DNA of 1,227 nucleotides from assembly GCF_003334815.1 (NCBI RefSeq), contig NZ_QOWO01000103.1; one strand, given 5' to 3'. A model generated the notes under the pieces. It saw only the letters and a program-made list of their open reading frames with translations, was not told the DNA's origin and ran no database searches. Every line of letters starts with the position of its first letter. The first letter of the stretch is position 1. Positions 1 through 1,227 of the stretch are shown piece by piece. The stretch is from Escherichia coli. GTDB lineage: Bacteria > Pseudomonadota > Gammaproteobacteria > Enterobacterales > Enterobacteriaceae. Made by a program: the position numbers and the translations under genes.

Positions 1-1038
1 CGCGTCGTAACGCGTCATCAGTTCGTTCAGGCGTTCTTCTTCCGCCTCCGTCAGCACCGCTTCCGGCTCCGGCAGACTGCGGTATGTTCCGGCATCCTCA
101 CGGCACTCACCGACAGGCTCCATGCGTCCGGCGCACCATTCCCAGCCTTCGGCTTCCCGAAGGTGTTCAGCGACAGCCTGGAGTTTTTCCAGCAGGGCAG
201 CATCGAGCGCAACACAGTCCACATAGCCACCCTCGTCGTCGCTGAACAAATCGGTGCGCAGTTCATCTGGCGAGAAGGCATCAGCCCCCACAAAGCGGAA
301 TTTAGTGTTCCCCGCCACCGCCACTTCACTTTCGGTCACCAGACGACGAATGGTCTGTACATCCGGTTTTCCGCCCCATCCCGACTGGCAGGCGGCTTCA
401 AACACCTGCACCTGACGCGCGGTGTCGTTCTCCAGCGCCAGCGCCTGACAGTGCTCTGTGGTGATGCGGTCTTCTGCCAGCGCATCGAGGATGACAGGCG
501 CAAGGTCTGCCAGTTTCAGCATTCGCTGAACGTGGCGGGGCGAATAGCCCAGCAAATCACCGATTTGTGCAGGCGTTTTGCCTTCCTGCGCCATCGCACG
601 GAATCCGGCAATCTGTTCGGCAGGGTGCATATCCCGACGATGACCGTTTTCAGTCATTGATGCGGCAGTCGCCAGCTCCTGCGGAATAACCTTCACGCGT
701 ACAGGCCAGTCAGCCGGAATGATGCCACGCTCTGCCAGCATGTTGAGTGCAGCCAGTCGGCGACCACCTGCGGCGACACCGTAACGGTCACCAGGCAGGG
801 TATGCACGACCAGATTCTGCAGCAGTCCGACGCCCTTAATGGACTCCGCCAGTTCGCTGACGGACTCCGCAGAATACGGCACCGTGCGCACATTCAGCGG
901 TGATTTAATCAGCGAGGCCAGCGGCACGCTCACTTCCTCCGTCTGCGCCAGCAGGGCAGACAGGACAGTTTCCTGCGTTTTTACAGATTTACGGCTTGCT
1001 TTGCGGGTGGTTTCTGGTTCACACTTCGTTACAGGCAT
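1..1038 (-). CDS. ParB-like nuclease-domain protein (ParB/Srx N-terminal domain plus HTH), N-terminal 346 codons; 3' end runs off the window
   Basis: Hand translation of the reverse complement in the frame whose codons occupy + positions 1-3, 4-6, and so on. That + frame has no TTA, CTA or TCA triplet from 1 to 1131, so the minus frame is open from the in-frame stop at 1134..1132 down to the window edge. The first in-frame ATGs are at 1044..1042 and 1038..1036. An AAGGGG Shine-Dalgarno at 1050..1045 sits 6 nt before the ATG at 1038 and directly abuts the ATG at 1044, so 1038 is preferred. The protein has a GGRRLAA motif (residues 91-97, nt 748..768) resembling ParB box II GERRxRA, preceded by LLQNLVVH, and an HTH-like segment TPAQIGDLLGYSPRHVQRMLKL (about nt 511..576). 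The family assignment is from memory of ParB-family motifs, not a database search. Confidence 0.85.
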   Translation of the reverse strand, partial: MPVTKCEPETTRKASRKSVKTQETVLSALLAQTEEVSVPLASLIKSPLNVRTVPYSAESVSELAESIKGVGLLQNLVVHTLPGDRYGVAAGGRRLAALNMLAERGIIPADWPVRVKVIPQELATAASMTENGHRRDMHPAEQIAGFRAMAQEGKTPAQIGDLLGYSPRHVQRMLKLADLAPVILDALAEDRITTEHCQALALENDTARQVQVFEAACQSGWGGKPDVQTIRRLVTESEVAVAGNTKFRFVGADAFSPDELRTDLFSDDEGGYVDCVALDAALLEKLQAVAEHLREAEGWEWCAGRMEPVGECREDAGTYRSLPEPEAVLTEAEEERLNELMTRYDA

Positions 1039-1044
1039 AATCAT

Positions 1045-1050
1045 CCCCTT
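1045..1050 (-). promoter_or_regulatory. Shine-Dalgarno (AAGGGG) for the ParB-like CDS
   Basis: The minus strand reads 5'-AAGGGG-ATGATT-ATG; the purine-rich hexamer lies 6 nt upstream of the ATG at 1038..1036. Confidence 0.5.
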
Positions 1051-1066
1051 ATAATTGCTTATGTCC

Positions 1067-1090
1067 TGCCGGACGTTCGCGCGTCCGGCA
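1067..1090. repeat. Perfect 9-bp inverted repeat TGCCGGACG-N6-CGTCCGGCA (potential stem-loop or operator) in the intergenic spacer
   Basis: Base-by-base check: + 1067-1075 (tgccggacg) is the exact reverse complement of + 1082-1090 (cgtccggca), with a 6-nt spacer ttcgcg. It lies 6 nt after the DUF905-like stop and about 16 nt before the SD of the ParB-like gene. No U/T tract follows it on either strand. Confidence 0.6.
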
Positions 1091-1096
1091 CCTCTC

Positions 1097-1227
1097 TTAC
1101 TTAAGAATCCCGAAATCCCTGATGTACTGGTTCATCCAGTACCCGGCACCGTCCTCAAAATTCCAGGAGCGCCAGATCAACGTGCCATCCTGACGGACAA
1201 CCAGGCGAAAATGCGTTCCCTGATCAT
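1097..1227 (-). CDS. Small DUF905/UPF0401-like protein, C-terminal 42 codons plus stop; 5' end lies outside the window
   Basis: The minus-strand frame with codons at 1225..1223 and onward translates to [42 protein letters not shown], then a TAA stop (+ strand 1097..1099). This resembles my recollection of the E. coli YkfF C-terminus (..DDQGSHFRLVVRD..WRAWNFE..NRYIR..GI..). It is co-directional with, and 58 nt upstream of, the ParB-like start. Only a partial sequence is visible and the family recall is from memory. Confidence 0.6.

Follow-up and report, generated by a model that had tools for sequence, protein, structure and literature searches.

An IncI/K-type allele of the plasmid leading-region gene herB and the lack of the canonical catalytic pair in its ParB-like protein family

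Introduction

The closest described relative of the gene analysed in this work is yfjB of the F plasmid, which was renamed herB in a bioRxiv preprint of 7 July 2026 (Virolle et al., PMC13370423; 10.64898/2026.07.07.736705). Here we study a stretch of 1,227 nucleotides from Escherichia coli (assembly GCF_003334815.1, contig NZ_QOWO01000103.1), called the window throughout, whose minus strand carries the 5' part of a herB-type gene and encodes the ParB-like N-terminal domains of its product.

F HerB is a homodimer in multi-angle light scattering, and a 2.6 Å crystal structure of its first two domains (D1-D2) has been described with the cytidine triphosphate (CTP) analogue CTPgammaS and Mg2+. The analogue is contacted by the C-motif/Box I, by Box II ('G91-A97') and by Box III ('M128-L132'), and E130 coordinates the Mg2+ ion (PMC13370423). 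Cryo-electron microscopy shows a new domain at the C-terminus, D4, as a V-shaped, domain-swapped dimer, with closed ring-like shapes 'occasionally' among the classes; D4 mediates nucleoid association (PMC13370423). HerB foci form also without F, and they are abolished or strongly reduced by the substitutions R94A and E130A and by the helix-turn-helix (HTH) mutations R168A, R172A and K175A (PMC13370423). Chromatin immunoprecipitation sequencing (ChIP-seq) during conjugation gave 156 chromosomal regions of 346-2971 bp, with neither a consensus nor a parS-like repeat, and no region on F; when expressed ectopically, HerB alters hundreds of transcripts (PMC13370423). Deletion of herB in F leaves transfer frequency and plasmid positioning unchanged, raises the acquisition cost by about 10% and makes the plasmid lose multi-day repeated transfer competitions (PMC13370423). 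YfjB is made early and transiently in transconjugants, from the single-strand promoter Frpo2 (PMC9849209), and HerB is produced solely in fresh transconjugants (PMC13370423). It is undetectable in established donors, and the HerB-sfGFP signal can still be detected about 7 hours after transfer.

In plasmid pED208 the gene parB2 lies in the same ssb-parB2-psiB-psiA cluster (mBio 2021, PMC8406263), and it is likened to herB by position, not by sequence. A bioRxiv paper of January 2026 on leading-region DNA processing uses 'ParB' for the parS/ParB imaging tool and leaves the herB gene unmentioned, a Nature paper of 2024 on leading-region anti-defence has parB in its reference list only, and a PNAS survey of the ParB-CTPase fold from 2025 names neither YfjB nor leading regions. 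The gene of the window is an allele of a plasmid gene that is both very common and annotated, and for the F ortholog this domain has been described structurally together with a CTP analogue; what is added here is another herB allele and the family-wide lack of the canonical catalytic Gln/Glu pair.

Results

Identity of the gene

We consider it very likely that the window holds codons 1-346 of a herB allele of the IncI/K type (yfjB in F, parB2 in pED208), which codes for a leading-region protein of 652 residues that would be a CTP-binding, clamp-like relative of ParB with a mechanism like that of its F counterpart. On the minus strand an open frame starts at the ATG at nt 1038 (MPVTKCEPETT) and meets no stop codon before the left window edge. 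In an IncI-gamma/K1 plasmid whose DNA matches the window with 100% identity the full gene has 652 codons (L001 = NC_019097, 9190-11148), and the gene order is ssb, DUF905, the herB-type gene, psiB and psiA, with ardA and nikA beyond, that is, a conjugative leading region. The arrangement in F matches, herB (yfjB) lying likewise between the DUF905 gene and psiB. All 1227 bases of the window are found with 100% identity in many E. coli and Salmonella plasmids, and DNA at least 90% identical to it is present in at least 5000 PLSDB records, mostly conjugative plasmids of Escherichia, Klebsiella, Salmonella and Shigella.

The window-type protein is 94% identical to F YfjB/HerB (UniProt Q9S4W2), with the same length of 652 residues and no gap in the alignment. 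Boxes I, II and III and the HTH residues do not differ; R94, E130, R168, R172 and K175, the positions mutated in F HerB, are identical and carry the same numbers, as do all the motif residues. Most of the 42 substitutions lie within the N-terminal tail, at residues 105-108 or within D3 and D4. The two alleles differ also in their plasmid backbones, that of the window allele, which is known from sequence, being IncI-gamma/K1 (MOBP, MPF_I) and not IncF. The four-domain plan of the HerB family (D1 ParB-N, D2 HTH, D3 and D4; about 650 residues) and its location between ssb and psiB are both found in the full-length window-type gene, of which the window covers D1, D2 and part of D3, D4 lying outside it (Table 1).

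We take the ATG at nt 1038 as the start codon: a Shine-Dalgarno sequence, AAGGGG, stands 7 nt ahead of it, it is the start in plasmid annotations and it is also present in F. An upstream in-frame ATG at nt 1044 (MIMPVTK) was rejected, being 1 nt past the Shine-Dalgarno sequence and absent from F. With two in-frame ATGs at 1036-1044 of the minus strand, choosing the first in open reading frame (ORF) calling moves the residue numbers by 2. Numbered from the MPVTK start, nt 649-921 of the window are residues 40-130, and LLQNLVVHTLPGDRYGVAAGGRRLAALNMLAERG stands for residues 72-105.

The protein belongs to plasmids, not to phages, as judged from database comparisons. The full-length protein (L001:9190-11145) matches phrog_7783, a phage protein family of unknown function, over residues 37-644 (E 1e-255); in a tblastn search of 50,697 phage records there was a single remote match, of 32% identity, in an unannotated human faecal contig, which indicates that the protein is essentially absent from phage genomes. 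The phrog_7783 family probably derives from plasmid-like or prophage-region sequences.

Two database proteins, P0018 (643 residues) and P0019 (592 residues), consist of F-type HerB D1-D2 followed by unrelated sequence. The match of P0018 to F HerB covers residues 1-227, and its remainder corresponds to the C-terminal region of the TraI relaxase/helicase (Pfam TraI_C, E 8e-42). The protein probably arose as an in-frame fusion when a non-conjugative F-like plasmid lost the DNA between herB and the end of tra, with oriT and most of the tra operon in the deletion.

Table 1. Features of the window, with the residue numbers of the encoded protein
Feature	Position (strand)	Residues	Basis
herB/yfjB-type gene, 5' part	1..1038 (-)	1-346	codons 1-346 of a 652-codon coding sequence; exits the left window edge
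D1: flexible N-terminal tail and ParB N-terminal CTP-binding domain	631..1038 (-)	1-136	Pfam, AlphaFold2, Foldseek; limits from PMC13370423
N49-V50-R51, counterpart of the Q-P-R phosphate motif 1	886..894 (-)	49-51	aligns on QPR of Thermus Spo0J and Myxococcus ParB
Box I / C-motif, ELAESIKGVGLLQNLVV	805..855 (-)	62-78	aligns on ELAxSIxxxGLLQP of solved ParBs
Box II / phosphate motif 2, G91-G92-R93-R94-L95-A96-A97 (GGRRLAA)	748..768 (-); G92 763-765	91-97	aligns on GERRxRA of Spo0J, ParB and Noc
Box III / phosphate motif 3, SMTENGHRRDMHPAE	616..660 (-); E130 649-651	127-141	aligns on ENLQRxDLxPxE of solved ParBs
D2: ParB-type HTH DNA-binding domain	334..630 (-)	137-235	Pfam HTH_ParB; helical model
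D3, first part, without known homology	1..327 (-)	238-346	D3 defined in PMC13370423
Intergenic spacer between the DUF905 gene and herB	1039..1096 (-)		58 nt; contains the Shine-Dalgarno sequence and a hairpin
Upstream DUF905 gene (yfjA in F), 3' end	1097..1227 (-)		annotation of the identical plasmid, coordinates mapped from L001 (NC_019097); frame visible

The ParB N-terminal domain and its motifs

A preliminary description, made from the letters of the window, had placed a ParB/Srx-type N-terminal domain at nt 649-921, and Pfam, TIGR00180, phmmer and AlphaFold2/Foldseek now agree on it, with matches to ParB models and a predicted structure that has the ParB N-domain fold. Pfam ParB_N (PF02195) matches residues 41-131 (E 1.1e-7 on the window fragment, 3e-7 on the full-length protein) and Pfam HTH_ParB matches residues 136-222 (E 2e-8). 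The N-terminal 240 residues pass the cut-off of NCBIfam TIGR00180 (parB_part), with 64.2 bits against 58.45. Among all PDB sequences phmmer finds Thermus Spo0J best (E 2.6e-17), GGRR falling on its GERR, and further matches to Helicobacter Spo0J, Noc and the ParB proteins of Myxococcus, Bacillus and Caulobacter, in the range E 1e-7 to 3e-17. An AlphaFold2 model of residues 1-240, made from 81 family homologues, has a mean predicted local distance difference test score of 92.9 and is confident from about residue 30. Searched against the PDB with Foldseek, this model matches Noc, ParB, Spo0J and KorB best (E 5e-12 to 5e-8; Noc 7nfu, E 4.7e-12). The template modelling scores are 0.57-0.62 for Noc 7nfu, and the highest values (0.5-0.6) belong to open, DNA-bound or apo conformers. 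Taken together, profiles and model give the window protein a ParB N-terminal domain and, next to it, an HTH domain of the ParB type, the HTH lying at about residues 156-176 (nt 511-573) and including R168, R172 and K175.

Past about residue 240 the full-length protein has no Pfam or PDB sequence match, and no ParB-type C-terminal dimerisation domain was matched. A deposited HerB structure was sought by PDB sequence search (2026 copy), which returned ParB, Spo0J and Noc relatives only.

All the motifs of the canonical ParB/Spo0J proteins (Thermus 1vz0, Myxococcus 7bnk, Bacillus 6sdk and Caulobacter 6t1f), which have the CTP-binding N-domain and the HTH in common with the window protein and are about 22-29% identical to it in Foldseek structural alignments, can be aligned. 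Motif by motif, L-N-V-R falls on x-Q-P-R, ELAESIKGVGLLQN on ELAxSIxxxGLLQP, AAGGRRLAA on xAGERRxRA and ENGHRRDMHPAE on ENLQRxDLxPxE. Conservation was read from a family alignment: a search of 1.84 billion representative proteins gave 1261 representatives at E ≤ 1e-30, and 107 full-length representatives were aligned with the query (108 sequences). In Box I, GLLQN (residues 71-75) aligns on the GLLQP of solved ParBs, and the family hardly varies at G71, L76 and I67. Box III is conserved as well, E130-N131-G-H-R134 aligning on ENLQR. In Box II, G91 and R94 are invariant (108/108) and A97 is nearly so; in Box III, S127 and N131 are each kept in 107 of the 108 sequences and E130 in 106, and R51 of phosphate motif 1 is likewise kept in 106. 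The arginine pair that had been read at nt 757..762 is R93-R94, and GGRRLAA, which had been called a variant of Box II, is indeed the Box II of the family, coinciding with the G91-A97 segment of the preprint.

Box II and the canonical catalytic pair

In Myxococcus ParB, Q52 and E93 are the catalytic residues. The variants Q52A and E93A retain normal nucleotide binding and have very little CTP hydrolysis left; their rings form also when parS is absent, their release from DNA is 7- to 60-fold slower, and in vivo their spreading reaches 4-5 times as far (Osorio-Valeriano et al.). Similarly, Caulobacter ParB with the E102A change binds CTP without hydrolysing it and is called 'clamp-locked'; E102 stands immediately before R103 and R104 and is the Box II glutamate, and Q58 of this protein is the counterpart of Myxococcus Q52. 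In PadC of Myxococcus both catalytic residues are replaced (F308 and F348), and there is no noticeable CTPase activity (PMC8367383).

The window protein departs from the canonical ParBs at these same positions, having N49 for the catalytic Gln and G92 for the catalytic Glu, and also A96 for the third Arg of GERRxRA. N49 aligns on Q52 of Myxococcus ParB and G92 on E93, so that both canonical catalytic residues are replaced; in the PDB alignments the mutant structures 7o0n (E93A) and 7bnr (Q52A) depart from the wild type 7bnk precisely at the G92 and N49 columns. The same is seen across the family. Asn occupies position 49, where the canonical Q-P-R has Gln, in 106 of the 108 sequences. At position 92 Gly is found in 68 (63%), followed by Glu in 11, Gln in 10, Arg in 10 and Ser in 5; the Glu cases are mostly G-E-G-R, and the canonical G-E-R-R occurs in 2 of the 107 representatives. 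By the family alignment, a missing Box II glutamate is typical of the whole HerB family, and Gly is the majority state, a tendency and not a signature. The proposal that the change from Glu to Gly marks a functionally divergent subfamily is therefore largely upheld, with one qualification: HerB is a functionally divergent, host-reprogramming factor (PMC13370423) and GERR is rare in its family, but with 63% of the sequences the glycine is no strict mark of it.

Sequences around the herB start

The spacer ahead of herB holds a perfect 9-bp GC-rich hairpin (1067-1090, minus strand) with stems TGCCGGACG and CGTCCGGCA, a 6-nt loop and no following U-tract; its RNA fold has z = -2.66. When aligned with F, the stems are kept and the loop sequence is changed, and of the two ATGs solely that at 1038 is in common. 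Stems that are kept while the loop varies suggest selection on structure, and the hairpin may serve in the processing or stability of the mRNA, or may form in the transferred single strand.

An Rfam scan of the window (E ≤ 1) gave one chance match to RsmY, of 14 bits, and no RNA gene. A scan for promoters and terminators gave one promoter-like plus-strand site and two weak terminator-like sites, numbers close to those of shuffled sequence. The promoter-like site is a sigma-70-like match at 1028-1055 of the plus strand (GTTACA, 16 nt, TATAAT; 10/12), antisense over the herB start codon; it may be due to chance, shuffled sequence averaging 0.4 such sites. Plus-strand ORFs that overlap herB, such as that at 163-660 (165 residues), were taken as by-products of a GC-rich antisense strand and set aside.

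Discussion

In this work we have identified the gene in the window as a herB allele of the IncI/K type, and its identity, domain fold, motifs and gene context are established from the allele itself. CTPgammaS binding, the mutant phenotypes, the ChIP-seq regions and the fitness effect were established in the preprint for the F ortholog, and an F-like mechanism is likely for the IncI/K allele because the two proteins are nearly identical. Ring closure and sliding are inferred as the mode of association with DNA.

We propose that D1, a ParB-CTPase fold, would bind CTP-Mg2+ through N49-V50-R51, the GLLQN C-motif, Box II (with R94 as an essential residue) and Box III (E130-N131-x-x-R134). Just after entry of the plasmid into the recipient the protein would be transiently produced from a single-strand promoter and would dimerise via the C-terminal D4; binding of CTP, together with the HTH, would then give clamp-like complexes on the host chromosome at places without a parS site, and the resulting change in host transcription would make acquisition of the plasmid cheaper.

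Several points weigh against this proposal. The functional evidence comes from a single preprint, not yet peer-reviewed, on the F allele, and its text contains no CTP hydrolysis, ring-closure or sliding assay. The D1-D2 crystal is a monomer in an unusual conformation (PMC13370423). For the transcriptomics HerB was expressed ectopically, and a large share of the response may be indirect. In pED208, ParB2 is also translocated by the type IV secretion system (T4SS), a ParB2-Cre fusion giving up to 1e-3 recombinants per donor, and deletion of parB2 has no SOS or transfer phenotype (PMC8406263).

The translocation of ParB2 also favours another explanation, in which the protein, delivered by the T4SS or made early, acts on the incoming plasmid DNA, either coating or organising the T-strand or the new duplex or working as a KorB-like repressor, and in which the effects on host transcription are side effects of ectopic expression. 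The gene does lie within the conserved ssb-parB2-psiB-psiA cluster, which is devoted to incoming single-stranded DNA, and the structural matches include KorB, a CTP clamp of the ParB family and a repressor of plasmid genes. However, during conjugation the ChIP-seq peaks are chromosomal, with none on F, foci form in cells that lack F, and neither transfer frequency nor SOS induction is altered by deletion of parB2/herB. We regard this explanation as unlikely.

The product name 'ParB/RepB/Spo0J family partition protein', which has been given automatically to the gene in thousands of plasmid records, implies a true partition protein, that is, a centromere-binding ParB that segregates the plasmid. 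Passing of the TIGR00180 cut-off, and the resemblance in sequence and predicted fold to chromosomal Spo0J/ParB, speak for it. But no parA adjoins herB in the IncI-gamma/K1 plasmid or in F, where the neighbours are ssb, DUF905, psiB and psiA, and elsewhere the IncI-gamma/K1 plasmid has a partitioning/stability gene of its own. For the C-terminal 400 residues there is no match to a ParB dimerisation domain, D4 being a different, domain-swapped dimer (PMC13370423), and in F the positioning unaffected by the deletion, the lack of ChIP enrichment on the plasmid and a protein undetectable in established donors all argue the same way. A role in partition is thus very improbable, and the product name is misleading, because the protein has no ParA partner and no partition role in F.

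The ParB/Srx fold is also used by nucleases and ATPases. That HerB would be such an Osa-like or ParB-nuclease-like enzyme acting on recipient DNA, for instance as an anti-defence or fertility-inhibition factor, is scarcely credible: Osa has been listed in the ParB family, anti-defence genes abound in leading regions (PMC11541004) and sulfiredoxin appears among the Foldseek matches, weakly and far down the list (ranks 43-47), but the complete set of ParB-CTPase motifs, Box III included, and the ParB HTH are present and conserved, the top structural matches are the CTP-switch proteins ParB, Noc and KorB and not Srx or nucleases, the F ortholog was crystallised with CTPgammaS-Mg2+, and the PADLOC matches are only marginal (E ~5e-3). 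These matches were to PD-Lambda-5_A, and a known defence-system component was likewise rejected as an identity for the gene. The preliminary description had left it undecided whether the protein is a clamp, a nuclease or something else; for the F ortholog, which binds CTPgammaS in the crystal and acts like a CTP-dependent DNA-associated dimer, the question is largely answered. The window protein is not a partition ParB, and nothing points to a nuclease.

Other ParB-like proteins work outside segregation, as we propose for HerB. In KorB of RK2 (8qa8 and 8qa9) and Noc (7nfu), which are among the top matches, the ParB-CTPase fold serves gene regulation and nucleoid occlusion besides or instead of segregation; these proteins have defined DNA sites and their own C-terminal or membrane-binding parts, whereas no consensus site was found for HerB in F. 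Compared with canonical ParB, HerB has no ParA partner, no parS found in F and an unrelated C-terminal half made of the new D3 and D4. PadC (6ryk), a structural match at rank 31 with low sequence identity, is, like the window protein, a ParB-like CTP binder without the catalytic Gln and Glu; it differs in lacking such an HTH DNA-binding domain and in being a bactofilin-ParA adaptor. The ParB of PRTRC systems (TIGR03734) is likewise a long ParB-like protein of mobile elements, of which the N-terminal region alone matches the window protein. TIGR03734 is the top NCBIfam model (73.6 bits, residues 48-205), and identity with a PRTRC ParB was rejected, the cut-off being 278.6; the next model is NF010406, a 578-residue 'plasmid partitioning protein'. 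The long ParB-like proteins of mobile elements without a ParA partner may be distantly related.

What follows from the replacement of both catalytic residues? One possibility, which we put forward tentatively from the alignments and by analogy with the Myxococcus and Caulobacter mutants, is that HerB-type proteins are natural 'clamp-locked' relatives of ParB, which would bind CTP and hydrolyse it very slowly or not at all. If so, the locked state would explain loading on the chromosome without parS, the broad ChIP peaks, the bright foci and the signal still detected about 7 h after transfer, and HerB would be removed by dilution or proteolysis instead of by a CTPase timer. On the other side, Asn may stand in for Gln in part, the change may be made up for by other residues, and in the ParB-CTPase fold predictions from sequence are poor, those of nucleotide specificity included (PMC12704722). 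The text of the preprint contains neither a measurement of CTP hydrolysis nor a discussion of the Glu/Gln substitution (PMC13370423).

What does herB mean for the plasmids that carry it? Resistance and virulence plasmids of Enterobacteriaceae, of the IncF, IncI and related types, carry the gene in their thousands, and it acts during establishment in a new host; it is relevant to the spread of antibiotic resistance because it is active in the short window in which a plasmid becomes established there. HerB is a case of the ParB CTP switch being reused outside DNA segregation, and if little or no CTP is hydrolysed by these proteins, the family would show evolution tuning the timer of a CTP clamp.

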